Below, one piece after another: positions 22,451-49,686 of a DNA stretch of 64,000 nt. A program made the position numbers and the translations under genes. The notes beneath the pieces are model-generated. The model saw nothing but the letters and a program-made list of their open reading frames with translations, was not told the origin of the DNA and did not search any database. Position 1 is the stretch's first letter, and every line of letters begins with the position of its first letter. The stretch comes from Candidatus Latescibacterota bacterium (GTDB taxonomy: Bacteria > Latescibacterota > UBA2968 > GCA-2709665). Location of the stretch: assembly GCA_965237675.1 (NCBI GenBank), contig OZ250150.1, forward strand, positions 5,056,001 through 5,120,000, read 5' to 3'.

Positions 22451-22832
22451 GGGCGTTCTTCCTTTCTGTTATCTGTTCGTCCGCGCGAATCATCAGAACT
22501 CGCCCCCGCGCGTCTGATTCGATCATACCGCCGAATCGAGGACGCGCGAATCCGGTTATGGCTGGTTGTCGCCCCGGACATCGACGGCTTCGGTCCGCAT
22601 TTCCTCAAGCAATGAATAGATAGTAATGAAAGGCCATAAGTCAAGGCAAAAACTGCCGTAACCCTTGCTGTGCGCAAGGGGGTTGCAGGACGCGAAGACG
22701 ATGGATATATTATACGAGATTTCACCGGCTACGAAGCCGAATTTTCAATCGCACAGACCCGCGGAACAAAAAACAGCGAATTGCGCCGGCACGCCAAGCT
22801 CCGATCGCCGGGCCCGTGAAGGGGGACCCCCG

Positions 22833-33604: not shown

Positions 33605-33659
33605 ATTCTCCTCCTTCGATCTCGTCGCACCGGAAGCGGTGGGTTCCACTGAATTGCCC

Positions 33660-33736: not shown

Positions 33737-33812
<76 letters not shown>

Positions 33813-34677: not shown

Positions 34678-35727
34678 TCAAAACACCCGCTCTACCAGAA
34701 AGCTGCACATCTCGCGCATCGTTTCCCGGGCCTCGGACGGAGGTATCTCATCCAGATGCGCTTCGGCGGAAGCCGCCCACTCCCGGCATGCATCTTCGGC
34801 CCGCTCGATCGAACCGTAGTGCTCCATTAGCGAAATCGTCCGTTCGACCTCGTCCATCCCCGTCTTGGAACGATCCCGATTCAGAATATCCCGTACCCAT
34901 TCCCGTTCATTCGCCGTACATCTATGAAACAGATCGATCACCATCAGGGTCCGTTTGCCCTCTGCGATGTCTCCGCCACGTTCCTTGCCGTAACCGCCGG
35001 AGGTCGTCATTGGGGCCTGGAGTGCATCCTCGGCCCGCACCGTCAGATTCAGCAGATCGTCCCTGATTTGAAACGCCACCGCCATTCGCTCGCCGAATGT
35101 GCCCACTGCCCGTTGACAAGCTGAAGATGCACCGGCGATGATCGCACCCGCGGTGCAGGGGCCCCAACCGCTATACCAGCCCGTCTTCAGGCGTAACATC
35201 TCCAAGAAGGCATCAACTTCGGGAACCTCGCCCGATTCGATCCATCCAATGTCGTAAGCCTGTCCTTCAAATGTGCGCTGCGCTCCCTGAAGCATCTCCT
35301 GGATCAGATGAAGCGCCACGTCATCGCCGAGAGTCTCGCGATTGGAAGCGAGAATTTCAAACACCTTCGAATGTAGCGCATCGCCGGCATTGATGCTCAG
35401 CGGCACACCGTGGAGGTGGTGCAAACAGGGTTTGCCCCTGCGCATTTCCGAACCGTCTTCAATATCGTCGTGAACCAGTGCAAAAGACTGAAACATCTCA
35501 AACGCCGCCGCCGTCCGCAGCGCCTTCTCCGCGGCTCCTCCCAACCCCTCACAGGCCAGCAGCACCAGTGCCGACCGAAACCGCTTTCCGCCCCGAATCG
35601 GATAATCCCGCATCGGTTCGTACAAATATCTGAGTGGCTCGGCCTTAGGCAGGAACCTGAAAAGCTCTGCGTCGATGAGGGGTACAAAGGACTCGAGGTA
35701 AACCTTTAGACGATCCTTCACCGGCAA
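34678..35727 (-). CDS. Polyprenyl diphosphate synthase (GGPP synthase-like)
   Basis: GGKRFR, FARM FALVHDDIED..RRG, KT, SARM FQIRDDLLN, GDIAEGK. Confidence 0.9.
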   Translation of the reverse strand: MPVKDRLKVYLESFVPLIDAELFRFLPKAEPLRYLYEPMRDYPIRGGKRFRSALVLLACEGLGGAAEKALRTAAAFEMFQSFALVHDDIEDGSEMRRGKPCLHHLHGVPLSINAGDALHSKVFEILASNRETLGDDVALHLIQEMLQGAQRTFEGQAYDIGWIESGEVPEVDAFLEMLRLKTGWYSGWGPCTAGAIIAGASSACQRAVGTFGERMAVAFQIRDDLLNLTVRAEDALQAPMTTSGGYGKERGGDIAEGKRTLMVIDLFHRCTANEREWVRDILNRDRSKTGMDEVERTISLMEHYGSIERAEDACREWAASAEAHLDEIPPSEARETMREMCSFLVERVF

Positions 35728-36040
35728 ATTCCTTGCGCTCTTGTCCGGAGCTTCGGTGCGACTTTAACTTCGGGCTGTTCACCTGAGCGGCGAGACGTCC
35801 CTTGTGTACGCAATCCATCCGTGGCAATCAGACCCGTTCTGTGAAGGGGCTGCAGACTTGACAATATTCGTTCAGGAGAAATTGGTGAGAAGGAGCAATA
35901 CCAGGGAAGGAGGAGGTTGGGGAAGACTATGCACGACAATATAGCGACAAGCATAAATGCGGTCAACTGTTTTCGTCTCCGAGCGCAGAATGTATTTAGA
36001 TGTCCGCAGAGGTTCACGCGCTCGATGCAAAGACCCGCCC

Positions 36041-36979
36041 TCATCGCCCCCGGTAGGCATCAAAGACAATTCTCAGATCCTGTTTGGCTCTCAGAAAGTC
36101 CGAATGCGGCTTCCGGCTTCGATCTTCCAGACATCGCAAGAAATCCCGGGTCATTTCCCGATACCCCATCAGGTCCGACATTCCGGGAAAGTACAACCGG
36201 ACTCCACAATGCCCTGTCTGGAGAACATAGAGACCATTGCTCTCAAATGTAATCTGCCCGTGTGTGCCACAAATGCGGGAATGCTGGAAGGCGCCCTTAG
36301 TGCGGCTCCTCGTGTTCCACGAATACCTCAGCTCAGCCGTCACGCCGCCAGGATAGGTCAGCGTTGTAACCGATGACCGCTCCGGTTGTCCCTCGCGGCG
36401 TCCGGGAAACCACCCAATGACGCGTTCCGGCGCACACTCGAACAGTGCGGAAATCAACGCGACGAAATGGATTCCGCCCTCAAGCAACGCCCCGTACCGG
36501 CGTTTCCAACCGGATGTCGACTGTGTGAACAGCTTTTTCACGAGTACCGACCTGATGTCTCCGAACCGGCTCTTCCCGGTCAATACCCTGATTTTCTTGA
36601 GCGACGGCTTGTAATAGTAGTTTTCGGCCACCATCAACAGCGCGTCCGGATGCAGGACCAGCGCTTCCTCGACCTCATCCACCTCCGCCGGCGAAACGCA
36701 CATCGGCTTTTCAACCATCACCGCTTTGCCCGCCGCCAGCGAACGGATCACCTGATCCTTATGGAACGCCGGCGGGGATGCGATCAACACCGCATCCACG
36801 TCGGATGTCGCCAGCGCATCCCCCAGACGGCTGAAGGTGCCGCCGCCGCGAAATTCAACATTGAAACGACGGGCGCTTTCCTCGGATCGACTGCAAAAAA
36901 GAAGCTCGGCGGCGCCTGCCAGGTTTTTCGCGTGCAGCCGAGCGATGTTCCCACAGCCGACCAGACAGATTTTTTTCAT
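36041..36979 (-). CDS. Gfo/Idh/MocA family oxidoreductase
   Basis: VGCGNIA, VEKP, AENY, GALLEGGIH. Confidence 0.9.
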   Translation of the reverse strand: MKKICLVGCGNIARLHAKNLAGAAELLFCSRSEESARRFNVEFRGGGTFSRLGDALATSDVDAVLIASPPAFHKDQVIRSLAAGKAVMVEKPMCVSPAEVDEVEEALVLHPDALLMVAENYYYKPSLKKIRVLTGKSRFGDIRSVLVKKLFTQSTSGWKRRYGALLEGGIHFVALISALFECAPERVIGWFPGRREGQPERSSVTTLTYPGGVTAELRYSWNTRSRTKGAFQHSRICGTHGQITFESNGLYVLQTGHCGVRLYFPGMSDLMGYREMTRDFLRCLEDRSRKPHSDFLRAKQDLRIVFDAYRGR

Positions 36980-37045
36980 GTTCCGGATTCCAGGACGGAT
37001 GAGTCAGGTCCAGGCGTCGTCATCGCCAGCCAGGCAGTGGGGTCT

Positions 37046-38542
37046 CTATCCGTATTCCGCGCGGATGACATCCCCTACCCGTAACGCATTGGCGGCGATG
37101 GTGAGGCTCGGATTCACCCCTCCAGATGTGGGCATAAAGCTGCCGTCGAGGACGAAGAGATTGTCAATACCTCGAAACCGGCAGAATTCATCGAGAACGC
37201 TGTCTCGGGCGTGGTCACCAAAACGAAGCGACCCCACGGCGTGGGAGAACGTCTCCAGTTTGTACACGCGGCGGAAGAGGCCGCCCCCCTGCTTCAGAAT
37301 TCGTCCGGCTCTTTCGGTCAGGTAATCCCTTCGGACGCGGTCTGCATCCGAGTATTGATGGACGACTCCGGTGACCGCGATTCCGTAATCGTCCTGGCGG
37401 GTGGTCAGACGCACACGATTTTCAAATTGGGGATCGTCTTCCGCGATGCAGAGCAGATTTTGAACGTAGTTCGCCACCAGTGCGGACAACTTACCGTATC
37501 CGAGGGGTGCGTAGTGCTTCAACACCTCCGGGGCGGGGGTGTAGATATCCTGAATCGTTCCCACTGCCGTGCCCAGTCGATCTCTCAGGTCTTCGTAGAA
37601 ATCCGTAAAGCACAACTGCTTGTGAAATACACGATCCGGATTGGTCCGGAATGGAAAGAGACCGGTGACCACTGCATTACAATGCCGCATCAAGAACCTG
37701 CCGACCAGGCGTTGGTTGCCGAGTCGCTCCAGCCCGGACCGCAACAGAATGGCGGGGCTCTGCAGGGCCCCGGCGCTGAGTATCACGATCTTGGCAGTGA
37801 AATCCACCGCCCGTTTTGAAGTCCCATCCAGACATCTGACCCGCATGACCCTCCCGCTCCGTGTTTCCAGTTGCAGTACGATCATCCCGGGCATGATATC
37901 CAGGTCGAATGCCTGAGCCTTTGCCAGAAGGGTCATAGCCACATCGTTTTTTGCTTCGATTCGGCATGGAAATCCATCGCAGGTCGAACATCGGATACAC
38001 GTGGGCCGATCCCTGTTTGTGAAATTCAGCGCCAGCGGTATCTTAAAGGGACGGTGCCCGAGTGCCCTCGCGGCTTCGTATATCCGCTTCGCCGGAGGCG
38101 TAAGTTCTATGCATTCGAACCGATAGGCCCCGGACCTCGGTGGCTCGTACATATCCTTGCCCGCCTGACCATGCACCTCCAGCAGATGCTCCGCCAGCGT
38201 ATAGTACGGCTCCATTGCCGCGTAATCAATCGGCCAATTCGAGAAATCCTTCTCGCGCAACCGGAGCGACGCCCCTCCATAAAAGACCGACATTCCACCG
38301 ACCGCTTCGTTCGGATAAACGGATTGAGGGGCCCGGTCACCCTCTACCACCACCGGCGAACGGCTTCTGTACCGTTGATCAATAAGGATCCCGCGCGGGC
38401 TCCAGTCCAGTGCATCCCGCTTCACCCACCCGCCTCGTTCGAGCAGAAGCGTCCGGAAACCCGCCCGGCTGAGCGCATACGCCGCGGCGCCGCCTCCAAG
38501 ACCGGACCCGATTACAATGGCTTCATAGGGCCGTGAGTTCAT
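37046..38542 (-). CDS. GMC family flavin oxidoreductase
   Basis: IGSGLGG, CIRCSTCDGFPC, SAGALQSPAILLRS, HAVGS, NPSLTIAANA. Confidence 0.9.
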   Translation of the reverse strand: MNSRPYEAIVIGSGLGGGAAAYALSRAGFRTLLLERGGWVKRDALDWSPRGILIDQRYRSRSPVVVEGDRAPQSVYPNEAVGGMSVFYGGASLRLREKDFSNWPIDYAAMEPYYTLAEHLLEVHGQAGKDMYEPPRSGAYRFECIELTPPAKRIYEAARALGHRPFKIPLALNFTNRDRPTCIRCSTCDGFPCRIEAKNDVAMTLLAKAQAFDLDIMPGMIVLQLETRSGRVMRVRCLDGTSKRAVDFTAKIVILSAGALQSPAILLRSGLERLGNQRLVGRFLMRHCNAVVTGLFPFRTNPDRVFHKQLCFTDFYEDLRDRLGTAVGTIQDIYTPAPEVLKHYAPLGYGKLSALVANYVQNLLCIAEDDPQFENRVRLTTRQDDYGIAVTGVVHQYSDADRVRRDYLTERAGRILKQGGGLFRRVYKLETFSHAVGSLRFGDHARDSVLDEFCRFRGIDNLFVLDGSFMPTSGGVNPSLTIAANALRVGDVIRAEYG

Positions 38543-39323
38543 AGACGTACAGAATTGTCAGACCAACAATTATGATCCACGCCATATAGTGGTATTTTTC
38601 GCGTGTCTCGATATAACGGGATATTCGCGGCAGGTCCGGTCTGAACTTGCCGGACATGGTGCGCTGCACGAAGGTCTTGTAATACTCGACCAGAAACCGC
38701 TCCAATCCACCGTTCATGAAAATCAGATAACCGAGCGGCACCGGTGAAAGCGGATCGTTCGAAAAGAAAAACAGTGGAGAACAAATGGCCAGCACCGTTG
38801 CGGACCGGAAAAACTTCAGGGGAGCGAATCCTTCAAAGGGAGCGTCCTTGTACGCCCCTCCGAGAGAAACCAGCAATCCCGTCGAAAAGGCGACCGCGGC
38901 GAATCCCGGGAAATCCTCGATCCGGACTGAAAGAAACAGCAGGGAAAAGACCCCCGACACCAGAACAACACCGGAGAAGAGTCGCAACGGTTCGCTGGTA
39001 ACCGGCCGGCCGAAAAACGTAATTCTGGACGGCACGGCGTATTTCGACTGATCCTCCGATCTGAAGAACCCCTTGTACAGCTCCGCGAGGAACCGTTCCA
39101 GGCCCATGATGGCAAAGAAGACCTGGAACAGGCTCAATTGGCGGAAACTTCCATGAAATAAGGGCAGCCAATAAAGCGCACAAAAAATAACGGCATGAAA
39201 ATAAACGCTGCGGGGAAAGGTGCGCCGCTTCAGGCCCTCAAAGGGAGAGTCCTTGAAAGCACCCCACAAAGAGGTGTATAGTCCTGAAATCAAACTGACG
39301 ACAAAAGAGAACCAAAAGTGCAT
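38523..39323 (-). CDS. Integral membrane protein of unknown function with two-fold internal duplication
   Basis: Several hydrophobic segments; GAFKDSPFEG/GAYKDAPFEG and GLERFLAELYK/GLERFLVEYYK repeated; overlaps the GMC gene. Confidence 0.8.
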   Translation of the reverse strand: MHFWFSFVVSLISGLYTSLWGAFKDSPFEGLKRRTFPRSVYFHAVIFCALYWLPLFHGSFRQLSLFQVFFAIMGLERFLAELYKGFFRSEDQSKYAVPSRITFFGRPVTSEPLRLFSGVVLVSGVFSLLFLSVRIEDFPGFAAVAFSTGLLVSLGGAYKDAPFEGFAPLKFFRSATVLAICSPLFFFSNDPLSPVPLGYLIFMNGGLERFLVEYYKTFVQRTMSGKFRPDLPRISRYIETREKYHYMAWIIIVGLTILYVYELTAL

Positions 39324-39511: not shown

Positions 39512-41968
39512 CTACCTGGCCATGTCGGACGGCCGCGCGCTCTTTACTCTCGCCGCTCCCCGGTTCCGTTTCCATCGATCGAGGATCTCAAGCACCGCGG
39601 GCAATACCACAATGGCCGCGACAAAACAGGTCAGAAGGCCGATCACGGCCAGCTTGCCAATTGAGTTCAACCCGGGATGTCTGGCCGTAATCAAACCGAA
39701 AAAGCCGATCATCGTGGTCAGCATCGATACGAGCATCGCGCCGCCGGTATTCCTGAGGATCACAGGTATCGAATTCGCGCCTTCCTCCTGATACCGGTGG
39801 AACAGATGAACGCCGTTATCGATCCCCATACCGATAATGGTCGGCAGGGCAACCATGTTATAAAAGTTTAATTTCATTCCGGACACGAACATACTCCCAC
39901 ACATCCAGACTGCACCACACGTTAGAGGCAACATAACCAACAATCCGTTTCGGATACTTCGAAAATCAATAAAAACAATAAGAAACACGACGAGAAGCGT
40001 GATGCTTATCGCCCACTTGCTGTCCCGAATCATCAATTTCAGCATATCGGCGAAAATAACGCTGGAACTGGAGGAATAAATCGTCTTGCCGGAGTCGGTC
40101 GTTATCAAATGGGTGTCGTCCGCAAACTCGATGGCCTTTCGACCGTCCCGAAGTGGCACGCTGGGGTAGATGAACGCAAAGTACGCCCGGCTTCCGTCGA
40201 CGGTGGAGAATTTGCGCAGTATGATCCTCGGCAGGTCATCCACGTCCAGCCTTTTCACATCCATCAGCTTACGCAAATCGTCCACCCGCTCCATCTGCTC
40301 GCCCTTCAGCAGTTTCACACCTTCGCCGTCTACAAGCTCACGCAGTTCAGCGACGACCTCCAGCTTCTCCTCCTGTTGTTCGGGAAGGAAGGACCAGAGC
40401 GTCCTGATCTTGTCGATCGTTGGCGTCGGGTCATCCGCTGCAATCTTGGCGTTCAAGGCCGCGACAATTTCGTCCAGTTCTTCTTTGCTGTCGGCCAGAA
40501 CCACGCTCGGAGAATGGGACTCGCCCCTGAATTTCGAAAGCGTATTGATCTTGTCTTTCACTTTCTTGGATGTGGCAAGATTGGACCGCAAATTGGTAAA
40601 ATCGTATTCGAATTGTATTCGGTCGAGATTATAACCCAGATAGACCGTGACCGCGATAGCAACCACGAACACCGGCCACGCCAACGGAAACCTGCCCTTC
40701 CCACCGCCCCGGTCGTGCCCCAGTACATGCCGCATTCGAACAAGCTTCAGGCGCTCGTCAGCCAGAACCAGAAAGGCCGGCAGAACGATCGTCATCGACA
40801 CGAGCGACATAACGATCCCCGTACCCACAATGAAACCGAATTCGGAGAATCCCTTGAAATCCGTGATCGTCAGTGAATAGAACGCCATCGACGTGGTCAA
40901 TGCGGCCGTCAGGATGGCCTGCCCCGTCCGGATCAACATTGTCTCCACGGACCGCCTCACGTCCATGTTCGCCATGCGATCTTCCAGGTACCGTCCAAAC
41001 ATGTGAATACCGAAATCGATACCCAGACCGAACAGAATCACAAACAGGAATCCGGTCATCGTATTCAAGTTGCCAATGGTCCAATAGGTGATGGCGAAAG
41101 CCCACGTCAACCCCATAATGAGCGGGATGGCAACAAAAAAGACAGCCAGCGGCTGCCGAAAATAAAACGTGAGGAGCAAAACAACACCGACCACACCAAA
41201 TATCAACGTCGACTTGATGTCGCCGAGAATAACATTATATTCATCGATCTTGTTCTTGTACGATCCCCCGATCGAGATCAGCATTTCGGGATGATAAGAC
41301 CCTGGGTTCAGCTCTTGCACGGCGTTCTGAAGCATACCGTACATCTCTTTGCTGAAACCAATATTACTCACCGTTCCTGATGCCATAACCTCCACGGCAA
41401 CGATGGTGCTGTCCGGATTGGTATAATAGACTTCGTGGCCACGGTCACCGTCTTCTTTGTACTTCGCTTCAATATCCGAAAAGTCCAGCGCCTCTTCGTC
41501 GTCGTCCAGCCTGAAAAACAAAGGTGATAACTTCAGTTTCTCCTGGCGGATGCGATCGTCGATGCGAAGCTGAATTTCCTCCAGATCCTCCAGATCCATA
41601 TACAGCAGCGCGTTATCTTTGAAAAAATCGACATCCCGCTTGTAATCGACGTAATTTACGTATTTCCAATATTTTTCGGCCTTCAGTTCAACAACCAGAT
41701 CATCCACAAATCGCCTGGATAGCGAAAAATCATCACACTCGACCAGAACCACCATACTTCCCACGCCGCCAAGCCGGGCTTTGATATCTTCCAGCGTCTG
41801 TACGCTGGGGTAATGTTCCGGAATCAGGGAAGCGATATCCGTCTCAAGACGCTGGATCAGACGAAAGACAAAAAAACCGCAAAAAATGGACAGGAGAGCC
41901 GCAACGACAATTATACCGGCGTACCGTCGATAGACAAAGTCCGCCAGAAACCGCAACCATTCCTGCAT
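39512..41968 (-). CDS. MMPL/RND family lipid transporter (HpnN-like)
   Basis: Two repeats of TM plus large periplasmic loop plus TM cluster; GLGIDFGIH and GMGIDNGVH. Confidence 0.9.
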   Translation of the reverse strand: MQEWLRFLADFVYRRYAGIIVVAALLSIFCGFFVFRLIQRLETDIASLIPEHYPSVQTLEDIKARLGGVGSMVVLVECDDFSLSRRFVDDLVVELKAEKYWKYVNYVDYKRDVDFFKDNALLYMDLEDLEEIQLRIDDRIRQEKLKLSPLFFRLDDDEEALDFSDIEAKYKEDGDRGHEVYYTNPDSTIVAVEVMASGTVSNIGFSKEMYGMLQNAVQELNPGSYHPEMLISIGGSYKNKIDEYNVILGDIKSTLIFGVVGVVLLLTFYFRQPLAVFFVAIPLIMGLTWAFAITYWTIGNLNTMTGFLFVILFGLGIDFGIHMFGRYLEDRMANMDVRRSVETMLIRTGQAILTAALTTSMAFYSLTITDFKGFSEFGFIVGTGIVMSLVSMTIVLPAFLVLADERLKLVRMRHVLGHDRGGGKGRFPLAWPVFVVAIAVTVYLGYNLDRIQFEYDFTNLRSNLATSKKVKDKINTLSKFRGESHSPSVVLADSKEELDEIVAALNAKIAADDPTPTIDKIRTLWSFLPEQQEEKLEVVAELRELVDGEGVKLLKGEQMERVDDLRKLMDVKRLDVDDLPRIILRKFSTVDGSRAYFAFIYPSVPLRDGRKAIEFADDTHLITTDSGKTIYSSSSSVIFADMLKLMIRDSKWAISITLLVVFLIVFIDFRSIRNGLLVMLPLTCGAVWMCGSMFVSGMKLNFYNMVALPTIIGMGIDNGVHLFHRYQEEGANSIPVILRNTGGAMLVSMLTTMIGFFGLITARHPGLNSIGKLAVIGLLTCFVAAIVVLPAVLEILDRWKRNRGAARVKSARPSDMAR

Positions 41969-41972
41969 GAAA

Positions 41973-42596
41973 TCAGTCCTTCCCTTTCCCGTCGGCCTCG
42001 TCCTCGTTGAGCTTATCCCTCAGTTTCTTTACAAGACCCTCGTACGATGACTTGCGAATTTCCTTGTAGAATTGCGATCGATTGTTCCTGGCAACACTCA
42101 AATCGTCAATTACCATATCGTAAACCAGCCATTTTTCGTCGACCGGATGGAGTTTATAGTTAATGTTGCTCTGCTCATCCTTGTAATGCACGATGGTCCT
42201 CACGAGACCTTCCGTACTGTCGACCTTCGAACCCACATATTCAATTTTCCCGGATTTCGTATAGAGTTTCGGATCAGCGTAGTTTTTGACGATCAGACGA
42301 CGGCAGAGGTCCGCAAATTCAGACTGCTCGGCCTCGGTGCGCCGTTGCCAGTGACGGCCCAACGCAACCCTGCTGAAGCGGTGGAAATCGAACATTTCTT
42401 CGACAATCGTCTTCAGCTTCTCGCGTTCCTCGGCGGTCTCTCCCTCTGTTTCCGAATTCACGATTGCCTTTATTGACCTGTCCCGTGTCTTCATCATCTC
42501 AAGCAGCATTCCCGCGTGGTCTGCACTCCAGGCGGAGCCGTCCCCTCTAAACCCAACAAAAGCATAAAACACAATAATATATAACAATATTCTCAT
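41973..42596 (-). CDS. MlaC/Ttg2D (HpnM-like) periplasmic lipid-binding protein
   Basis: Signal peptide; FDFHRFSRVALGRHW, WLVYDMVIDDLSV..NRSQF. Confidence 0.88.
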   Translation of the reverse strand: MRILLYIIVFYAFVGFRGDGSAWSADHAGMLLEMMKTRDRSIKAIVNSETEGETAEEREKLKTIVEEMFDFHRFSRVALGRHWQRRTEAEQSEFADLCRRLIVKNYADPKLYTKSGKIEYVGSKVDSTEGLVRTIVHYKDEQSNINYKLHPVDEKWLVYDMVIDDLSVARNNRSQFYKEIRKSSYEGLVKKLRDKLNEDEADGKGKD

Positions 42597-42621
42597 TTTA
42601 GCCAGTTCCTTTTGCGGTCAG

Positions 42622-42664
42622 AAATAAAACGATCCGGCAGAAGGACACCTCCCCTGCCGGATCG
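42622..42664 (-). terminator. Intrinsic terminator/attenuator inside the lipid cluster
   Basis: 11-bp stem CGATCCGGCAG/CTGCCGGATCG followed on the minus strand by TTTTATTT. Confidence 0.7.
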
Positions 42665-42711
42665 ATACCCGTTCTATTCTTCCCATGATTTGCGTGCATC
42701 CATCTCCTCCT

Positions 42712-44151
42712 TCAATCCGCCTTACCTGAAACCAGCTTATCCGCTTCCGTCGTGCGGGTTCGCATAATATGTCCAATAAATCCGAAAACGGCGCTCACAA
42801 CCAGGCCGGAACCGAGCACAAAGATCCAGAAGATCGCCTCGAGGCTATTCAAAACCGCCAGAACACAGAACAAAGCCGCGAAGAAGTCTCGACGACACGC
42901 GAACTTCAGTCCACAATATATCCGGTGCAAACGTCCACGATGTTCTTCGGGAACCTCGCTGGAAAACCTCATGTTGAAGCTTACGATACTGCCCGAACCG
43001 CTCTGTTTCAGGTAAACGCAGATGAGCAAGACAGCCAGTACGTCCAGCGCAAGGGCAATGAATCCCAGGGCGATCACAACCGGCTCTCCGGTCAATTTGT
43101 ACATGCCGTAGATGACACCTGAGAAAAATGCCAGATAGGATACGTTGTCCGCCACCGTATCCAGCCATTCCCCAAGTCGCGATCCCACAAACTTGAGCTT
43201 GGCGATCTCCCCGTCGCAGCCGTCCGCAATTGAAGCAAACTGGAACAGCAGCCCGCCCAGCGCCACGTGAAAATAGCCTCCTTCCGCCATCGCCCAGCCC
43301 GCAAGAAAGGTTACCATCATTGCGGCAATCGAAATCTGATTGGGCGTCACCGGCGTTCTTACCAATAATCTGGAGATCCAGGTGGAGATCTTGCGGTTGA
43401 AATGGCGCGATACAACCCCATCGGTCGGCTTGCCCAACTGGCCGAACAACGCCTTCTCTCCCTGGTGCAAGGCTTCGGGTGTATCCACATCCTGCCAAAA
43501 CAGCCCATCGATTTCCACCGCCCGCATGTTTCCGTGAGAACCCAGGACGCGGACACCTCCTGAGAGCGTTTCGTCACCCTGGGCAACAGAACGCTCAAGT
43601 CCGTCAAATAACGCGGGGCTGGAGAGAAAAATACCGGTATCCACCGCGTCGTATTGGCCCAGCGCTTTTCCGATCTGTAGAATCCGGTCACCTTCCAGGA
43701 CGACTTTGGTGGCATCGTCCAGATCCTGAATCCGGTCCAGCCGGGTGTCAACGCACAACGCCGATTCACCGGTGCCCAGCAACAGACGCCGCATTCGGGT
43801 GATTACTTGGGGTTCAAACAGATGGTCTGCCATCAAGAGAAGAAATGGACCCTCCACAAAATCCCTGGCTTTCAGGACAGAGAGGCCGTTGCCACGCCGC
43901 CATTCCGGGTTTTCAACCCAATCTATGGGTACATCGATTTGCGGATCGTCTGCAATGGCCTCGCGTATTTCATCGCCTCGATAACCGATAACAATGGCAA
44001 ACTCGATGATCCCCGCTCGTTTCGCAGTCAATATGGCCCGCTTTAGCAACCCGACGCCGGCAACTTTAACCAACGGCTTTGGCTGCCCGCGTCCGTGCCC
44101 GTTTAAGCGGCTGCCCATACCGGCAGCAATAATCACTGCCTTATCTACCAT
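42712..44151 (-). CDS. Bifunctional NTP-transferase / CDP-alcohol phosphotransferase (IPCT/DIPPS-like)
   Basis: AAGMGSRL..KPL cytidylyltransferase domain; TPNQIS and DGCDGEIAK...GEWLDTVAD CDP-AP signature; RBS GGGAGG. Confidence 0.9.
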   Translation of the reverse strand: MVDKAVIIAAGMGSRLNGHGRGQPKPLVKVAGVGLLKRAILTAKRAGIIEFAIVIGYRGDEIREAIADDPQIDVPIDWVENPEWRRGNGLSVLKARDFVEGPFLLLMADHLFEPQVITRMRRLLLGTGESALCVDTRLDRIQDLDDATKVVLEGDRILQIGKALGQYDAVDTGIFLSSPALFDGLERSVAQGDETLSGGVRVLGSHGNMRAVEIDGLFWQDVDTPEALHQGEKALFGQLGKPTDGVVSRHFNRKISTWISRLLVRTPVTPNQISIAAMMVTFLAGWAMAEGGYFHVALGGLLFQFASIADGCDGEIAKLKFVGSRLGEWLDTVADNVSYLAFFSGVIYGMYKLTGEPVVIALGFIALALDVLAVLLICVYLKQSGSGSIVSFNMRFSSEVPEEHRGRLHRIYCGLKFACRRDFFAALFCVLAVLNSLEAIFWIFVLGSGLVVSAVFGFIGHIMRTRTTEADKLVSGKAD

Positions 44152-44164
44152 GACGCCCTCCCTG

Positions 44165-45544
44165 TTACTCCAGAATCGAATTCCCCGTCGCACGCCTCAA
44201 TGCCACCCAGGCCACATTGAACTCCAACACAGCCTGATAGTATTTGGCGCGGATAATTCCATACTCCTTGACCGCATCGACCATCTCCCCCGCCTCCTCC
44301 AACCCGGCATTGAATCCATCTCTCGCCGAAATAAACCACCGTCTTGTTGCCCGTCGGGCTTCTCGTGCCGCCCTGATATTGGCTTTCGCCTCTATGAGCG
44401 ACCGATAGGCCCGTTCGATTTCCAGCCGGGCACCCTGTACCGCCAGTTGCGCCTGGTAGCTGAGTTTTTTATAGGCCAGGCGGGCTTCTTTCACCCTAGC
44501 TGTCGTGTTCGCGAATGACAATGACTGCCGAAAGCCAAGGACGGCGCCCAACTCAGTAACATTAAACTCGTCTTTCAGGAATGGATTCCGCTGCCGGTCT
44601 CTGTTCGGCGCATAACCGTATCTAAACTGGCCGGCGAGAAATACCTGTGGAAACAAATCGGTTCGGATGGCACGCACCTGTGCAGACCGCACCCGCAACC
44701 CCTCCCGAAGTTGCCCCAGATCCGGTCGACCCTCCACCCGCGACAGATAATGTTCCAGTGGACGGATCTCGACGTCAACCGGTTTCAGACTCCCGTCGGC
44801 GAGAACAAGGGAGTCAGACTGAGAAAGCCCCAGGAGGATACGCAACGCCGACCGTGCGAGCGCCTGACTCTTCACGACCTTATTTGCATTCTCCTCCACG
44901 TCGAACACAAACCTGTCAATCCGGTGCAGATCGGTGTACGTAAAATCCCCAGTATCGGCTTCCAGCTTTTCGGCGATTGTTCGCCGTGCCCTGTCAATCT
45001 CCACCCGCGACTCATCCGCCAGGGCCCGAAGCTGATTTGCCAATAACAGCAGATAGTAGGCCCTGGCTACCTGCCGCTCCACGTCGATGCGGGATCGGGT
45101 CAGTCCGGCGCGCCCCGCACCGATGCCGCCGGATGCGGCTTCTACCGCCGCATCAAGTTTGCCGAAGGTGAAAAGTGGCTGAACCAGCGACAATTCGGTT
45201 CTCGTAAACACACTCATCTGCCGCCAATTGCTGACTCCCGTAATGGCGTCGCCCCGAGCCTCCGGCGAGGGTCCAAATATCCAGGTCAGATCCAAACGGG
45301 GAAGAAATCGCGCCGCATGTACCTGTCTAAGCCTATTCTCAGCGATCTCAAGATCCGCCTCGGCGGCGTGAATGGACGGACTCGACGCGAGTGCCATCCG
45401 TACGCACACGGCGAGATCGTATCGACCCTGTCCGGATTCGGAATAAGACGGACGGATACCGATCCCCATCACACAGATCAGGACAATTGAAACGGGAAGC
45501 CATACCCGCTGTGAATTTTTACCACATGTGTGGGAAAATTGCAA
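44165..45544 (-). CDS. TolC family outer-membrane efflux protein
   Basis: QPLFTFGK, VARAYY, RPDL, DLFPQV OEP repeats; start uncertain (TTG 45544 after GGAGG chosen). Confidence 0.85.
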   Translation of the reverse strand: MQFSHTCGKNSQRVWLPVSIVLICVMGIGIRPSYSESGQGRYDLAVCVRMALASSPSIHAAEADLEIAENRLRQVHAARFLPRLDLTWIFGPSPEARGDAITGVSNWRQMSVFTRTELSLVQPLFTFGKLDAAVEAASGGIGAGRAGLTRSRIDVERQVARAYYLLLLANQLRALADESRVEIDRARRTIAEKLEADTGDFTYTDLHRIDRFVFDVEENANKVVKSQALARSALRILLGLSQSDSLVLADGSLKPVDVEIRPLEHYLSRVEGRPDLGQLREGLRVRSAQVRAIRTDLFPQVFLAGQFRYGYAPNRDRQRNPFLKDEFNVTELGAVLGFRQSLSFANTTARVKEARLAYKKLSYQAQLAVQGARLEIERAYRSLIEAKANIRAAREARRATRRWFISARDGFNAGLEEAGEMVDAVKEYGIIRAKYYQAVLEFNVAWVALRRATGNSILE

Positions 45545-45717
45545 CGCCTCCTCCGTCAACCTCCCGGATATACGGCGTGTCAGTTTATGCACAAAAAGCA
45601 GAGAAATATTTGTATATATTAAAGATATTTTCATTAGACCGGCGTTTCTTCGATCTCAGAATCTGTATGATTGATAGCGAATGCCGTGCCATGAAACAGT
45701 GAACCTGCGACACATCT

Positions 45718-45885
45718 CTAGTGTTCTGTCCCGGAAATAGATCGCGTAAATTCGGCCGTCGAGTCGCCCGGCTCGTAAGGCGCCTGCGCAAGGCGACCTG
45801 GGCAAGGTCGGCGAGCAAAGGGAACGCAGCGAGACGTGATGAATCGGCGGAAGAATGGTGACATATTTCTGGGACGGGACACTAG
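45718..45885. mobile_element. MITE (inner CTAG family), full-length solo copy
   Basis: 168 bp bounded by CTAG at both ends; terminal inverted repeats CTAGTGTTCTGTCCCGGAAATA / CTAGTGTCCCGTCCCAGAAATA (19/22). Confidence 0.87.
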
Positions 45886-47138
45886 ACCCCCAGCGCTTCA
45901 AACATAACGGCCTGCACACTGCGGGCCACTTCGGCCGCGTCGTGCCGTTGTACCGCGGAGACGCGCGCGGCCGAACCCATTCGTTGCCGCAACTCCCTAT
46001 TCTCAATCACCCTGAGGATGGTCTCCGCCAACCCCGTAACGTCGTTTGGCTTCACCAGAAATCCATTGTAGCCATCCCGTATCAACTCCGGAACGCCGCC
46101 AATTGCAGACCCAACCACCGGCGTGCCCAGGGCCAGAGATTCGATAACGCTGCGGGGGCAGGGGTCTGGCGCCACGGACGGCACAAGTGTGACATCCATA
46201 TCCTTCAGATACGGCCTGACGTCAGTTCGAAATCCCGTAAACCGGACCCGGCCCGAATATCGCCCGTTCGCGACCCTTCGGCGATAGTGATCCAGCAGAT
46301 TCAACGACCGTCGGGGGCTCCCGCCGACAACCACCAGAACGACGTCCTGCCGCTGAGCCAGAACATGCTCCATCGCCGACAGTAAAGTATCGATTCCCTT
46401 CCATTCTACAATACGACCGACGAAGCCCAGCACCACGTCGTCCGGTGCAATGCGGTACATCCGGCGCACACACCCCCGAATCCTCGCCGGGTCGAAACTG
46501 GCCAGGTCCGCGCCATTGTACACAACATGAACCTTCTCTTGCACCGACGGGAAATTCTCAGCACACGCCTGGGATACGGCAATAATCCTGGTCACGGTGG
46601 TTAACCGCGCGAGCCGGTCGAAAAACCAACCTCTGAAAGACGGGCCATAAAGGGTGCGGCAGTGCCAGACGACGGGGACGCCGCAAACCAAGCCCGCCAA
46701 CGTGCCCATCAGTTTAACCATCATCTGGTTGCAATAAACCAACGCAACACGCTCACGGGAGACCATGCAAATCAGATCAAATGTAAAGCGTACGCTATCG
46801 ATGGCATTCAGAACCGCGGAAACCATGAGGCAGACGCGGTTCTGCCTACGGAACCTCAACTCCATGAATCGTTCTTTCAACCTGGGTGTGATTCGGTAGC
46901 GGATCCGGTTCTCCGCAAGCTTTTTCTTCAACACACCCTCGTTCGGCATAACCACCAAGGGCTCGAATACTGCGGGATCGAGATGTTTCAACAGGTAATA
47001 AAGACTGTTCCCCGCCCCGCCCCGCCCGGTACATCCCGTGAGGAAGAGCACCTTGACCCTCTTCCTGCCGTTTCCGGCGTACAAATTGGGCGACGATACA
47101 CCTGCGTCGTCGCCCAATTTCCCGAAACACGCCAACAT
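45882..47138 (-). CDS. GT4 family glycosyltransferase
   Basis: VGRIVEWKG, DPCPRSVIESLALGTPVV (Ex7E-like, Asp first), GGVPELI; TGATG coupling to the upstream gene. Confidence 0.9.
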   Translation of the reverse strand: MLACFGKLGDDAGVSSPNLYAGNGRKRVKVLFLTGCTGRGGAGNSLYYLLKHLDPAVFEPLVVMPNEGVLKKKLAENRIRYRITPRLKERFMELRFRRQNRVCLMVSAVLNAIDSVRFTFDLICMVSRERVALVYCNQMMVKLMGTLAGLVCGVPVVWHCRTLYGPSFRGWFFDRLARLTTVTRIIAVSQACAENFPSVQEKVHVVYNGADLASFDPARIRGCVRRMYRIAPDDVVLGFVGRIVEWKGIDTLLSAMEHVLAQRQDVVLVVVGGSPRRSLNLLDHYRRRVANGRYSGRVRFTGFRTDVRPYLKDMDVTLVPSVAPDPCPRSVIESLALGTPVVGSAIGGVPELIRDGYNGFLVKPNDVTGLAETILRVIENRELRQRMGSAARVSAVQRHDAAEVARSVQAVMFEALGV

Positions 47139-48769
47139 CAGTTCAGCCGCCGGATAATGTGGTATCCCAGAGGTGTATGAACGACCCCGCTGGTCTCACC
47201 CACCCGCAATTTCAGCACCGCTTCCTCAAACGCAGGATTCAAATCGCCAGGCGAGAAAAACCCCAGATCGCCGCCGGTCTGCGCCGAAGCATCACCGGAG
47301 TGTTCCCTGGCCAGTACCCTGAAATCCTCGCCCGCCCTCAGCTTTTCAAGTACTTGTTGCGCCTCCGTTTCCGTTTCCACCAGAATATGATACACCCACA
47401 ACTTGCCTGACTGTATCCCTTCGATCTCGTCGATCTTTGTCTGCGCCGCCTGCTCGATCTCTTCGTTCGGACTGAAGGCCCCGGCCTTTTCAAACGCCCG
47501 CCTCGCCCGGTCAAACTCCCGTCTTGAAGTATGGGCAAGGCCCATATTGAAATGCACACCCGCGTTGGTGGAATCCACCGCCAATGCCCGATTGTAGACC
47601 ACGAGGGCCGAATCGAGGTCCTGCTGTCCCGCGTAAATCAATGCAAGATCTCCATACGGCTCCAGAATGTCCGGGCTTAATTGAATTGTAGCTTCCAGAG
47701 CCTTCTTGGCTTGCCCGATGTCCCCCTTCTGCAGGTAAACCTGCGCGACGCCGTACTGGAGGCGCGCCTGTTCCGCCTCCGGCGCTATCTCCATGATCAA
47801 ACGATACTCCCTCAGGGCCCGGTCCCAGTTCTGCTGAACGGTGTACAACCTGGCAAGCGCAGAACGTGTATCCAAATCGCCGGGCACCAACTGCGATACT
47901 CTCTCCCACGCTTCCCGTGCAACATCCAGCGAGTCCACCTCGGCCGCCATCTGCCCCATGGAACGGTGCACTTCCGGATCGTCCGGGGCCACGGAAACCG
48001 CGCGCCGGTACGCGGCAAAAGCTTCCGAACTCCGCCGCATCGAATGGTAGATGGCACCCTTGTTTACAAGCAAGGAAACGTCGTTGGGGTTTTTTCCCAA
48101 CTCCTCTTCGAGGACCGAAATCGCCCGTACATACAGTTGATTCGCTTCCTGGGGTTTACCCAATGCACCGTAGATTTGCCCCTGATTGATCATCAATACC
48201 ACACTCTCAGGGTTGCTCTGCAATCCCTGGCCGAAAACAGCAAGCGCTTTATCGGGGTCCTTGAGCGCGACATGCAACCCCGCCAGGGACTGGTATGCCT
48301 CGATGTTTTGCGGATCTAACGTAATCGCGGCCCTGAGATCCTGTACCGCCAGACCCGGATTACCGGCCTCCTGATACAGCATCGCCCTGTCCATCAGCAA
48401 GAGGACGGAATTGGGGATCTGGTGCAACCCCTTATTCAATACCTCCAGCGCCTCTCGGCCCCTGTTGAGTCGCGCATGAATCCTGAAAAGCGCATCGTAT
48501 GACGCCTCAAGATTCGGCCCCAACTCTACCGCTTTCTCAAAGGCGTCGATAGCGCCTTCGGCCTGTCCCATCTGCACGAATACCATCCCGAGGACACCAA
48601 AAGCATTTGCGCTGTCCGGAAACGTCTCCGCGAACAACCGCGCCGTGACCAGCGCGGAATCGGCTCTGCCCTGCGCACCATGGGTGCTGATCTCCGCCAG
48701 GAAATCCCGGGCAGCCACACCTTCACACCACAGTATCAGGCAACAAAATACAAAAATCGTCCGTTTCAA
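47138..48769 (-). CDS. Exported TPR-repeat protein with C-terminal parvulin (PpiC-type) PPIase domain
   Basis: Signal peptide, many TPRs, HILV...FRVLAREHS.D.SAQTGGDLGFF...FEEAV..TPLGYHII. Confidence 0.87.
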   Translation of the reverse strand: MKRTIFVFCCLILWCEGVAARDFLAEISTHGAQGRADSALVTARLFAETFPDSANAFGVLGMVFVQMGQAEGAIDAFEKAVELGPNLEASYDALFRIHARLNRGREALEVLNKGLHQIPNSVLLLMDRAMLYQEAGNPGLAVQDLRAAITLDPQNIEAYQSLAGLHVALKDPDKALAVFGQGLQSNPESVVLMINQGQIYGALGKPQEANQLYVRAISVLEEELGKNPNDVSLLVNKGAIYHSMRRSSEAFAAYRRAVSVAPDDPEVHRSMGQMAAEVDSLDVAREAWERVSQLVPGDLDTRSALARLYTVQQNWDRALREYRLIMEIAPEAEQARLQYGVAQVYLQKGDIGQAKKALEATIQLSPDILEPYGDLALIYAGQQDLDSALVVYNRALAVDSTNAGVHFNMGLAHTSRREFDRARRAFEKAGAFSPNEEIEQAAQTKIDEIEGIQSGKLWVYHILVETETEAQQVLEKLRAGEDFRVLAREHSGDASAQTGGDLGFFSPGDLNPAFEEAVLKLRVGETSGVVHTPLGYHIIRRLN

Positions 48770-48852
48770 CCCCACGCCTCCATTTGAAAAGTCAATCCAA
48801 AATCCTTCGTCATGTACTCTGATCGTTCCAGTTCCGCTATTCCGCGAATACC

Positions 48853-48881
48853 TTGACAAGTTCCGGGAATCCCCGTATAAT
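48853..48881 (+). promoter_or_regulatory. Consensus sigma70 promoter
   Basis: TTGACA-17 nt-TATAAT exact match. Confidence 0.85.
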
Positions 48882-48886
48882 CCTGA

Positions 48887-49040
48887 GGCTTTCGACCCAC
48901 CCGACGCCGCGGCGTCTTTTGACATGCTTCGGTGCCAGGCCTGCTGCTCGTGGAAACGTCGACCTCCTGGCAACAGTGCGGTCCCGGCCGCAGCAGGTGA
49001 CGATTGTCGCGCATCCCCCGGTTGGCGGCGACAAAGCGCC
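48887..49040 (+). ncRNA. Candidate structured RNA (6S-like or cis-regulatory leader)
   Basis: Directly after a consensus promoter; CCTGCTGC/GCAGCAGG stem enclosing two GNRA-capped hairpins; ends partly complementary; family not recognised. Confidence 0.35.
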
Positions 49041-49062
49041 CTTGAACCCCCAGTTTCCGTGT

Positions 49063-49686
49063 ATGAGCGTCCTTCAACGGGATCCCATTGCCGCCATACT
49101 GCTCTGTCTTGTGGCGAGTTATCTGGCGTACAACCATCTTCCGGAACGCATTCCCGTACACTGGGACGTTTTCGGACGCATCGACGTGGAGTTGAATAAA
49201 TTTGTGGGCGTCTTTCTGCATCCTGGCGCAATGACCCTCGTCTATATCTTCTTCCGTCTGATCCCGTATGCCGACAAGACCCGTGTGCGCCAGTTGAAAG
49301 AGATCGGCCTTTACGATCCGTTCCGCAACGGCGCGGTCCTCCTCTTCGGGTACAGCCATCTCCTTGTGCTGGGCATCGGTCTGGGGTGGGTAAACCGCGG
49401 GGCAAACCTTTTTGCCGGACTGCTCTCGCTTGCCGCCATCCTCACCGGAGACCACCTCAAAAACGTGCGTCCGGTACGGTTCGATCTTCTGCTCCGCAGG
49501 ATCGACATCTCCAACGCTCCGCCCATCCGGAAGGTCGTCTGTAATGTCCTCATCCTCTGTGGCGCGCTCGGGCAGTTAGGCACCGCAGCCGGCATCCTGC
49601 AAGTCGCCTGGCTTCTCTTGCCGCTGGGCGTCGGTTACATTCTTGTGCGCAGGCGCTTTCCCGCAGATCGGAAACCGGCGCCGTGA
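49063..49686 (+). CDS. DUF1648/SdpI-like membrane protein
   Basis: YNHLPERIPVHWDVFGRID motif plus several TM helices. Confidence 0.78.
   Translation: MSVLQRDPIAAILLCLVASYLAYNHLPERIPVHWDVFGRIDVELNKFVGVFLHPGAMTLVYIFFRLIPYADKTRVRQLKEIGLYDPFRNGAVLLFGYSHLLVLGIGLGWVNRGANLFAGLLSLAAILTGDHLKNVRPVRFDLLLRRIDISNAPPIRKVVCNVLILCGALGQLGTAAGILQVAWLLLPLGVGYILVRRRFPADRKPAP

Follow-up and report, generated by a model that had tools for sequence, protein, structure and literature searches.

A 64,000-nucleotide stretch of the Candidatus Latescibacterota contig OZ250150.1, referred to here as the window, contains four consecutive minus-strand open reading frames (ORFs) spanning 39512-45634, which encode a TolC-family outer-membrane factor (OEP), a fusion enzyme (FUS), an MlaC-like carrier and an MMPL-type pump. 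These genes are proposed to constitute a make-and-export cluster for an envelope lipid, probably one with an inositol-phosphate head group. That the four genes function together is regarded as highly probable, and the full scheme, which runs from synthesis of the lipid to a TolC-like outlet, is given an even chance of being correct. The analysis shows the gene content, the conserved linkage, the sequence signatures and a predicted interface between carrier and OEP. The core features are as follows:

44165..45544, minus strand: TolC-family outer-membrane factor (OEP), 459 aa from the TTG at 45544 (ORF open to 45634)
42712..44151, minus strand: cytidylyltransferase (IPCT-like)/CDP-alcohol phosphotransferase (CDP-AP) fusion of a 'type II' acceptor-pocket subfamily, 479 aa
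42630..42664, minus strand: hairpin resembling a terminator (14-bp stem, then a T-run), which separates mlaC from the enzyme gene
41973..42596, minus strand: periplasmic MlaC/HpnM-like lipid carrier, 207 aa (Pfam MlaC, 1.6e-33)
39512..41968, minus strand: MMPL/HpnN-like RND transporter, 818 aa (Pfam MMPL, 1.4e-41)

All ORFs were called with a GC3-aware caller, and the 50 ORFs of the window were scanned against Pfam. For the survey of related loci, a genome set with one genome per species (GTDB) was scanned with an alignment of the fusion enzyme, which yielded 598 confirmed relatives; the best 80 of these were kept as loci (L numbers), each with 10-kb flanks. Gene presence in the 80 loci was scored by tblastn with the window proteins, a total of 1104 called ORFs were clustered, and 126 ORFs from 8 diverse loci were annotated with Pfam. 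The fusion enzyme was the search query, and the frequency of OEP-MlaC-MMPL groups that lack it lies outside the reach of the survey. The nearest related locus is found on a Candidatus Latescibacterota chromosome and encodes an enzyme 93% identical to that of the window; most of the other close loci are labelled likewise.

Within 10 kb of the enzyme gene, OEP is matched in 21 of the 80 loci, MlaC in 20, MMPL in 16, and a polytopic membrane protein (U266) together with a GMC-family oxidoreductase in 14, while the remaining 59 loci have none of OEP, MlaC and MMPL. Among the loci with transport genes, gene order is shuffled across Latescibacterota, Gemmatimonadota, KSB1 and unclassified bacteria. 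Thirteen loci of the Latescibacterota type (one titled Gemmatimonadota and one 'bacterium') have the order OEP-FUS-MlaC-MMPL-U266-GMC, in some cases followed by a GFO-family oxidoreductase gene, and the Gemmatimonadaceae locus L075 has GMC-GFO-U266-OEP-MlaC-MMPL-FUS-Wzx-like. A second Gemmatimonadota locus (L063) combines FUS with genes for a Wzx-like protein, a radical SAM enzyme, an MlaC/DUF3047 fusion, OEP, MlaC and MMPL, the KSB1 locus (L077) consists of FUS-DUF3047-OEP-MlaC, and three unclassified genomes (L015-17) hold FUS, a methyltransferase, a Wzx-like protein, a second CDP-AP, OEP, DUF3047 and MlaC. In all 20 loci having both genes, which represent several phyla, OEP adjoins MlaC or lies one gene away. 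Recurrence in 21 of the 80 loci with altered gene order argues that the grouping is not due to chance. Insertion sequence (IS) elements encoding DDE transposases separate the enzyme gene from mlaC in two loci (L012:11667-12791 and L013:11891-13053), with the same element present again about 10 kb upstream in L013, and these insertions have left the gene set undispersed.

The 50 ORFs of the window include no Pfam match to an HlyD-type adaptor, MlaD/MCE, MlaE, an MlaF-type ABC protein or MlaA, and no inositol-phosphate synthase. No HlyD-type, MCE/MlaD, MlaE or MlaA family is present among the 126 annotated ORFs of the 8 loci, and the same families are absent from 46 more ORFs standing for the unannotated gene clusters of the 13 other transport-linked loci. 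The sole ABC matches in transport-linked loci are opposite-strand fragments at the very edge of L016 and L017. A literature search covering MlaC/MMPL/TolC/HpnN transport, DUF3047 and inositol lipids in Gemmatimonadota and Latescibacterota returned no account of such a cluster. Proteins of the DUF3047 family are encoded beside the OEP gene in several related loci (L006:8467-9825, L063:14096-15826, L077:11729-12988, L015:16959-17954) and not in the window; some are fused to a second MlaC-like domain, and one passing mention of the family was found in the literature.

The original prediction, which was made from the window alone, had named four co-oriented genes for TolC, IPCT/CDP-AP, MlaC and MMPL, and the minus-strand ORFs match these families in Pfam. 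Its statement that the window has no adaptor or MlaD/E/F gene is likewise confirmed for the 50 ORFs and extends to the annotated ORFs of the related loci, where neither membrane-fusion protein (MFP) nor MlaFED genes are found, and the synteny it relied on is conserved across phyla as a gene set, in 21 of 80 loci, with the order changed. The prediction called the cluster adaptor-less; such an absence is unremarkable for an HpnN/MMPL-type pump, and it is the TolC gene that is the unusual part. The four genes stand as predicted, and the functional unit probably extends past the limits drawn at 39512..45544, to a GT4 glycosyltransferase gene upstream and to the U266, GMC and GFO genes (36041-39323) downstream.

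The enzyme gene and mlaC are 115 nt apart, and the GC-rich hairpin occupies part of this gap; its stem and T-tract are kept in L001-L005. An Rfam scan of the window gives nothing at this position and a tRNA as its sole match. The hairpin suggests two transcription units or attenuation.

Fusion enzyme and its acceptor pocket

The enzyme ORF occupies 42712-44193, with a likely start at 44151 that gives a 479-residue protein matching the length of its homologs. Pfam assigns it NTP_transf_3 (2e-13) and CDP-OH_P_transf (3.2e-8) domains, and the NCBIfam model for IPCT/DIPPS (NF041135) aligns over the full length at 8.5e-77, with a score of 259 bits that is below the curated equivalog cut-off of 580. 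The top three PDB matches are Archaeoglobus fulgidus IPCT/DIPPS (4MND, 1.6e-52, residues 4-449), IPCT (2XME, 1e-27) and the CDP-alcohol phosphotransferase AF2299. The CDP-AP motif D310xxD313G314xxA317K...G327xxxD331xxxD335 is complete, with the R of 'AR' replaced by K318.

Homologs of the enzyme occur in a second kind of setting, in which an inositol-3-phosphate synthase (MIPS; TIGR03450, 456-471 bits) is encoded immediately upstream (25 of the 80 loci, none of them a Latescibacterota-type cluster locus) and a DUF4202/HD-domain protein immediately downstream (24 of the 80). The MIPS genes of the common bacterial/archaeal type were recognized after ORF clustering and comparison with NCBIfam, and tblastn with the eukaryote-like inositol-phosphate synthase of the Methylomirabilota locus L029 matched L029 and, weakly, L069 only. 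Loci with MIPS, enzyme homolog and HD protein would look like a di-inositol-phosphate solute operon together with its phosphatase. The DUF4202/HD protein (cluster c2, about 190 aa; L022:7538-8110, L024:1373-1951 and 22 further loci in many phyla, often with MIPS upstream) is a candidate for the phosphatase that completes di-inositol-phosphate synthesis, and many of the genomes encoding it are not evidently those of thermophiles (Nitrospinota, Bacteroidota, Microbulbifer).

A quick maximum-likelihood tree of the enzymes places the MIPS/HD-linked loci in one clade of 48 rows (SH-aLRT 98) and the window enzyme in a separate clade of 14 rows (support 100), and the other transport-linked lineages also fall outside the classical MIPS-linked clade. 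The Latescibacterota genome of L053 has an enzyme copy of the classical clade, which indicates that the two enzyme types are paralogs. Across 47 classical sequences, 104 positions are conserved at 90% or above, 54 of them in the N-terminal domain and 50 in the CDP-AP domain. The clade of the window keeps 48 of the 54 N-domain positions, and five of the six exceptions have the same residue at lower frequency, with E37K as the only real substitution; in the CDP-AP domain, 28 of the 50 positions are kept. The residues R336, D339, Y387, R418, R424 and R455 of the MIPS-linked clade are N, Y, G, A, F and V in the window, and the replacements at R418 and R455 are non-basic and mostly hydrophobic. The combination N/Q336-Y339-G387 is common to 20 of 21 transport-linked and 4 of 4 radical-SAM-linked sequences, and RRDYRGRR or a near variant is found in 48 of the 53 remaining sequences.

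Passages of a structural study describe two conserved arginines in the pocket formed by transmembrane helices 4-6 that bind the acceptor phosphate in a CDP-AP using inositol phosphate, and they state that CDP-APs with lipid acceptors typically carry 3-4 additional C-terminal helices and that the characterized solved relatives AfDIPPS and Af2299 do not process lipids (Clarke 2015; PMC4634129). The retention of the N-domain together with the loss of the acceptor-pocket arginines suggests that CDP-inositol is retained as the donor and that the acceptor is no longer inositol phosphate. On these signatures the enzyme is not a classical di-inositol-phosphate synthase, and it probably makes CDP-inositol. 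The involvement of inositol is considered likely. A lipid acceptor is slightly favored over the other options; a lipid alcohol is the obvious candidate because of the transport-type neighbors, with the Rhodothermus marinus route as a precedent.

Two further observations concern homologs in other loci. Where 'type II' homologs stand apart from transport genes, the gene immediately following them encodes a radical-SAM protein (L014:11427-12389, L018, L019, L029:11444-12517 and L050), and radical-SAM genes are also found nearby in L015-17 and L063; the best NCBIfam match of these proteins is the PTO1314 family at 77-90 bits, far under the cut-off. This linkage hints at an extra modification step or at another pathway using the same enzyme subfamily. 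In addition, the L029 enzyme displays a third acceptor-site signature, RGT.LRYL, which it has in common with two Verrucomicrobiae loci.

Carrier, pump and outlet: proposed mechanism and alternatives

The MlaC-like protein matches Pfam PF05494 at 1.6e-33 and has an N-terminal hydrophobic, signal-like segment. Its score against HpnM (TIGR03481) is 59 bits (cut-off 160), and a search of the PDB with the family profile retrieves MlaC-like entries, led by 2QGU at 1.1e-20. The pump matches Pfam MMPL (PF03176, 1.4e-41) in two stretches corresponding to two half-domains and scores 317 bits against HpnN (TIGR03480; cut-off 752) and 210 bits against BstA (cut-off 1400); its top PDB match is HpnN (5KHN, 1.4e-24). 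Direct contact between the pump and the OEP was considered and is deemed unlikely, as the 818-residue pump is shorter than HpnN and its match to MmpL4/5 is confined to residues 249-443, both of which argue against a long periplasmic extension.

The original prediction has its end coordinate at 45544, and a TTG codon at this position is directly preceded by the Shine-Dalgarno sequence GGAGGAGG; the start agrees with those of several orthologs, making 45544 the likely true start. The protein matches Pfam OEP (PF02321, 1.3e-38) as two tandem repeats and scores 79 bits against TolC (TIGR01844; cut-off 225) and 51 bits against NodT (TIGR01845; cut-off 210), and its family profile matches TolC-family chains in the PDB at 2.7e-6 at best. 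An AlphaFold2 (AF2) model (pLDDT 79.4, pTM 0.70) has the element order of a TolC protomer, with four beta-strands, two long and two short helix pairs and an equatorial segment, and Foldseek aligns it with the structures of TolC, OprM and CusC (E down to 3.6e-20, TM 0.72-0.77). By these sequence and fold matches the OEP is a divergent member of the TolC family.

For complex prediction, OEP (residues 66-489) and MlaC (residues 26-207) were each supplied as an alignment of cluster orthologs. The ipSAE is 0.69 (runs 0.69, 0.71 and 0.65), compared with 0.00, 0.00 and 0.01 for three controls, with a partner pLDDT of 84 and at least 96% of contacts common to the runs. This score is the model's own confidence, and 116 of 157 solved complexes attain the mark that it passes, as do 2 of 215 mismatched pairs, counts that are approximate here because custom alignments were supplied. 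To our knowledge, no MlaC-TolC complex has been solved that could have been memorized by the predictor. The OEP contacts at 228-230 and 427-446 coincide with the two helix-turn-helix tips of the AF2 model (turns 227-232 and 443-447), those at 462 and 465 are in the lower part of the last helix, and those at 282 and 284 fall in the equatorial segment and are the sole basis for placing the predicted site on the outer face. The tip stretch RRWF.SARDGFNAGLEE is almost invariant in Latescibacterota, and W433 and F441 are invariant in all 15 aligned OEP sequences, across phyla. The MlaC-TolC docking anticipated in the original prediction is thus favored by the modeling (0.69 against a best control of 0.01), and docking of MlaC on the periplasmic tip of the OEP is judged to be as probable as its opposite.

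In the proposed scheme, the N-terminal domain, judging from its conserved residues, would convert CTP and inositol-1-phosphate to CDP-inositol, with the inositol-1-phosphate supplied by a synthase encoded elsewhere in the genome. The CDP-AP domain would transfer phospho-inositol at the cytoplasmic face to an acceptor other than a second inositol phosphate, most likely a membrane lipid alcohol (diacyl- or dialkyl-glycerol or ceramide) in parallel with the CDP-inositol route of R. marinus. The GT4, U266, GMC and GFO proteins, to judge from the position of their genes, may decorate or process the product. It would then be flipped, an HpnL-like or Wzx-like flippase gene being part of the cluster in sister lineages. 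The MMPL pump, if it acts as HpnN, MmpL3 and BstA do, would lift the lipid from the inner membrane using the proton gradient, and the soluble MlaC-like protein would ferry it through the periplasm and, according to structure prediction, dock on the tip of the divergent TolC-family trimer. The trimer would take over from an MlaA-type lipoprotein, receiving the lipid at the outer membrane or letting it out, with no membrane-fusion adaptor involved. The most specific form of the proposal, in which the carrier replaces the adaptor, would have RND-loaded MlaC dock on a dedicated TolC trimer and hand over, or feed into its duct, a phosphoinositol (glyco)lipid made by a new enzyme subfamily; this form is offered tentatively, as a possibility that is probably wrong in at least some part.

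Several points weigh against the scheme. The KSB1 locus and L015-17 have no MMPL gene within 10 kb, and the hairpin, which has OEP and the enzyme gene on one side and mlaC and MMPL on the other, may mean that the four genes do not form a single transcript. The enzyme aligns end to end with the six-helix AfDIPPS, apart from a polar insert, and is without the extra helices of lipid-acceptor enzymes, and we know of no lipid-acceptor signature for this enzyme subfamily. Inositol-phosphate synthase genes are absent from the window and from the positions adjoining the enzyme gene in all transport-linked loci except L029. The negatives for adaptor, MlaFED and hopanoid genes cover the 64-kb window and the 10-kb flanks, and such genes may lie elsewhere in the genome. 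The OEP was docked as a monomer, the trimer being over the size limit, and part of the MlaC site may be buried in the trimer.

Four other explanations were weighed. The transport genes may export hopanoids or another isoprenoid lipid in the manner of HpnN/HpnM/HpnL, the enzyme modifying the hopanoid side chain or being a mere neighbor. The best NCBIfam names point in this direction (HpnN at 317 bits, HpnM at 59 and, in sister loci, HpnL at 152), as do the closest solved relative of the pump, which is HpnN, and a polyprenyl diphosphate synthase gene downstream in the window; L029 moreover has OEP-MlaC-HpnN-MlaC beside a squalene-hopene cyclase gene, about 4 kb from MIPS-FUS-radical SAM, and passages of Lawrence et al. 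(2025; PMC12324291) already propose HpnN-HpnM-HpnS transport. The three Hpn scores are, however, well under their cut-offs (752, 160 and 196), whereas the L029 pump reaches 574 bits, and no squalene-hopene cyclase or hpn biosynthesis gene is present in the window or in the 20 transport-linked loci other than L029. The polyprenyl synthase is kept with the cluster in L001-L006 only, and the enzyme gene is the constant partner, in part by construction as the search query. Hopanoid export is accordingly rated unlikely. Production of a soluble compatible solute, such as di-inositol phosphate or a related phosphodiester, in a transport neighborhood of no functional meaning would agree with the full-length homology to AfIPCT/DIPPS, with the six-helix architecture that lacks the helices tied to lipid acceptors in passages of Clarke (2015; PMC4634129), and with the resemblance of most homologs to solute operons (25 loci with MIPS upstream, 24 with HD/DUF4202 downstream). 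Against it stand the recurrence of the OEP/MlaC linkage in several phyla with rearranged order and the traits of the subfamily, which has no MIPS and HD neighbors, has lost the acceptor-pocket arginines and falls outside the classical clade; little probability is assigned to it.

The OEP may also be the ordinary exit duct of an MFP-dependent pump, for efflux or type I secretion, whose genes lie elsewhere, with MMPL and MlaC acting independently of it. TolC proteins often serve several pumps and may be encoded away from them; E. coli TolC is the textbook precedent, and the complete TolC fold of the OEP and the hairpin that splits the four genes into two pairs are in keeping with such a role. 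The adjacency of OEP and MlaC, at most one gene apart in 20 of 20 loci across phyla, the absence of an MFP gene within 10 kb in those 20 loci and the specificity of the predicted MlaC interface (controls 0.00-0.01) make this account rather improbable. The system may finally work in the retrograde direction or in outer-membrane lipid homeostasis, as is usually proposed for Mla, with no new lipid exported. E. coli MlaC is usually assigned to retrograde traffic, according to passages of bioRxiv 10.64898/2026.08.28.747810, and the present evidence does not fix the direction of transport. The relatives of the pump (HpnN, MmpL3 and BstA) are characterized or proposed as moving lipids outward in the passages cited (PMC11713862, PMC12324291), and the cluster holds a biosynthetic enzyme, to which relatives add flippase-type genes; retrograde traffic is considered quite improbable.

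Neighboring genes and the remainder of the window

The genes on either side of the core are the following, all on the minus strand:

47138..49405, minus strand: TPR repeats with a PPIC-type peptidyl-prolyl isomerase domain (Pfam)
45882..47138, minus strand: GT4 glycosyltransferase (Pfam Glycos_transf_1, 1.3e-36)
38523..39323, minus strand: polytopic membrane protein U266, 266 aa with an internal duplication and without a Pfam or NCBIfam match
37046..38542, minus strand: GMC-family FAD oxidoreductase (Pfam GMC_oxred_N/C), overlapping the end of the U266 gene
36041..36979, minus strand: GFO/IDH/MocA NAD(P) oxidoreductase (Pfam)

The GT4 gene stands ahead of OEP both in the window and in L001-L005. 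Its slot is occupied in L006-L013 by an HpnL-like LPG_synthase_TM flippase-like gene, and an unrelated GT4 gene follows the enzyme gene in L008. The GT4 protein is a probable accessory that decorates the head group. The HpnL-like gene (TIGR03476, 152 bits, cut-off 196) is found in L006-L013, L018 and L019, and a Wzx-like flippase gene in L015-17, L043, L063 and L075. Passages of Heaver (2022; PMC9246714) place a lysyl-PG-synthase homolog beside both Bacteroidetes inositol-lipid clusters. The TPR/PPIC gene lies upstream of the cluster in L001-L007 and L009-L011, also has matches in L008 and, at a distance from the cluster, in L012, and is absent from the distant versions of the cluster; its product is a possible periplasmic assembly factor whose membership in the cluster is uncertain.

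On the downstream side, the U266 gene comes after MMPL in L001-L013, and in L075 it stands ahead of OEP. It always adjoins a GMC gene, and the two occur together in 14 of the 80 loci including the Gemmatimonadaceae locus L075; examples of U266 are L006:14955-15755, L008:16497-17300, L013:16645-17448 and L075:4149-4976. Among 410 homologs of U266, the 120 with listed source names are all called 'hypothetical protein', and Atlas clusters are likewise only 'hypothetical'. The protein has the invariant motifs WGAFKD.P.E / GGA.KDAP.EGF, and its AF2 model (pLDDT 84.5, pTM 0.86) gives no match to PDB folds (best E 0.1, TM at most 0.28). The GFO protein has inositol 2-dehydrogenase IolG as its best NCBIfam match, at 69.5 bits against a cut-off of 355, and is present in the cluster context in L001-L007, L013 and L075.

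Genes for a polyprenyl diphosphate synthase, a transaldolase-like protein and a ceramidase-like protein farther downstream were rejected as members of the cluster, being syntenic in the closest relatives only. The polyprenyl diphosphate synthase (34678-35727, minus strand) is of the short-chain, GGPP-type, IdsA-like kind and lies directly downstream of GFO together with a 108-residue ORF without a family (35718-36044, minus strand); both are confined to the closest relatives, and the synthase does not stay with the cluster beyond L001-L006. The ORF at 32375-33649 (minus strand) weakly resembles the N-terminal half of neutral/alkaline ceramidase (Pfam 8.7e-17) and is syntenic in L001, L002, L004 and L005, which is a possible hint that the organism handles ceramides.

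The first part of the window (1-31654) is rich in polysaccharide-degradation genes, including those for a sulfatase, two heparinase II/III-like proteins, a GH123-like protein, mannonate dehydratase and a TonB-dependent receptor, and large ORFs without a Pfam family are found at 12391-13794, 22665-24395 and 25629-26963. The tRNA gene is located at 33737-33809 on the plus strand (Rfam, 67.9 bits). At the other end, a DDE_Tnp_1_4 transposase is encoded at 58674-60038 on the minus strand (1.7e-156), and lowered G+C around 58-62 kb suggests an insertion.

Comparison with known systems

Few systems are known for the delivery of specific lipids to the Gram-negative outer membrane, and an RND pump paired with an MlaC-like shuttle exists to date only as a proposal for hopanoids, in which the receiver is MlaA-like. 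In passages describing that model, the HpnN RND protein passes its cargo to the MlaC-like shuttle HpnM and on to the MlaA-like outer-membrane partner HpnS (Lawrence, Pan, Ollikainen and Belin 2025; PMC12324291). The cluster of the window resembles this system in having an HpnN-type pump gene beside an MlaC-like gene, with an HpnL-like (LPG_synthase_TM/AglD) gene in sister loci, and in the proposed shuttling from the pump to an outer-membrane receiver. It differs in that the outer-membrane protein is a TolC-family channel in place of an MlaA-like lipoprotein, the linked gene encodes IPCT/CDP-AP and not a hopanoid enzyme, the hosts are Latescibacterota, Gemmatimonadota and KSB1 and not Proteobacteria, and the Hpn scores are under cut-off. 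The word 'TolC' has 0 occurrences in Lawrence et al. (2025; PMC12324291). The cluster is read here, from sequence and modeling, as a variation on the HpnN/HpnM scheme proposed for lipid export, one in which the outer-membrane partner belongs to the TolC family. The lipid-export interpretation of the original prediction is supported in part, by computation, in its linkage and its predicted MlaC-TolC docking, and its lipid product is a matter of interpretation; passages of PMC12324291 had already proposed a hopanoid RND protein with an MlaC-like shuttle. The Methylomirabilota locus (L029:71-12517), with the order OEP-MlaC-HpnN (574 bits)-MlaC-PagL-squalene-hopene cyclase, indicates that what is probably a genuine hopanoid HpnN/HpnM pair can have a TolC-family gene beside it too.

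On the biosynthetic side, the enzyme has the same two-domain fusion as A. fulgidus IPCT/DIPPS (4MND), with residues 4-449 alignable, the CDP-AP motif whole and 48 of 54 N-domain positions kept. Unlike the enzymes of IPCT/DIPPS-MIPS solute operons, it scores 259 bits against a cut-off of 580, falls outside the MIPS clade and has its acceptor-pocket arginines lost or moved, and it is surrounded by lipid-transport genes in place of MIPS and HD-phosphatase neighbors. In R. marinus IPCT and BEPIS, CDP-inositol is the head-group donor to a lipid alcohol (as related in passages of Megson 2015, PMC4587543, and Heaver 2022, PMC9246714). The same reaction is proposed for the window enzyme, a likeness drawn from the descriptions in these passages and not from the BEPIS sequence; the R. 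marinus operon differs in including an inositol-phosphate synthase gene, and transport genes go unmentioned in the Megson and Heaver passages.

With the E. coli Mla system (MlaFEDB-MlaC-MlaA/OmpC) the cluster has in common a soluble shuttle of the MlaC fold between an inner-membrane transporter and an outer-membrane protein, but an RND pump and a TolC-family protein stand in for the MlaFEDB ABC/MCE complex and for MlaA. Pumps of the AcrAB-TolC type likewise join an RND inner-membrane protein to an outer-membrane protein of the TolC fold; the cluster departs from them in having no adaptor gene, a pump of the MMPL/HAE3 type and a soluble MlaC-fold carrier as the predicted partner of the tips. 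The predicted MlaC site comprises the same helix-turn-helix tips that are contacted by adaptor hairpins in pump structures. The BstABC sterol transport system of Methylococcus capsulatus, as presented in passages of PMC11713862, consists of an MMPL-family pump, a periplasmic binding protein and an outer-membrane-associated protein encoded beside biosynthesis genes. It shares with the window a trio of pump, carrier and outer-membrane protein near a lipid-making gene, but its PhnD-like carrier and TatT-like lipoprotein have other folds and its lipid is different.

A tolC homolog is conserved in an mlaEFD-tolC-tamB operon of Negativicutes (passages of Grasekamp et al. 2023; PMC10665443), which provides a precedent for tolC genes among lipid-traffic genes, without a shown role; the partners there are MlaEFD and TamB with no MlaC, and these passages assign TolC no part in lipid traffic. 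A lipoprotein partner of E. coli TolC is reported in a passage of PMC13082787. If a TolC-family receiver is confirmed in the present cluster, TolC channels would act in lipid traffic without an adaptor and MlaC-fold proteins would engage the tips used by adaptors. Such a 'shuttle-fed TolC' would constitute a third trans-envelope lipid route beside the bridges (Lpt, AsmA-like proteins and MCE tunnels) and the MlaA-type shuttle, and it would be the first inositol-lipid export pathway in Latescibacterota and Gemmatimonadota. The enzyme subfamily defined by N/Q336, Y339, G387 and F424 would extend CDP-inositol-based lipid synthesis to Gemmatimonadota and to uncultured phyla including Latescibacterota and KSB1, and its signature can be used to find such pathways in metagenomes.

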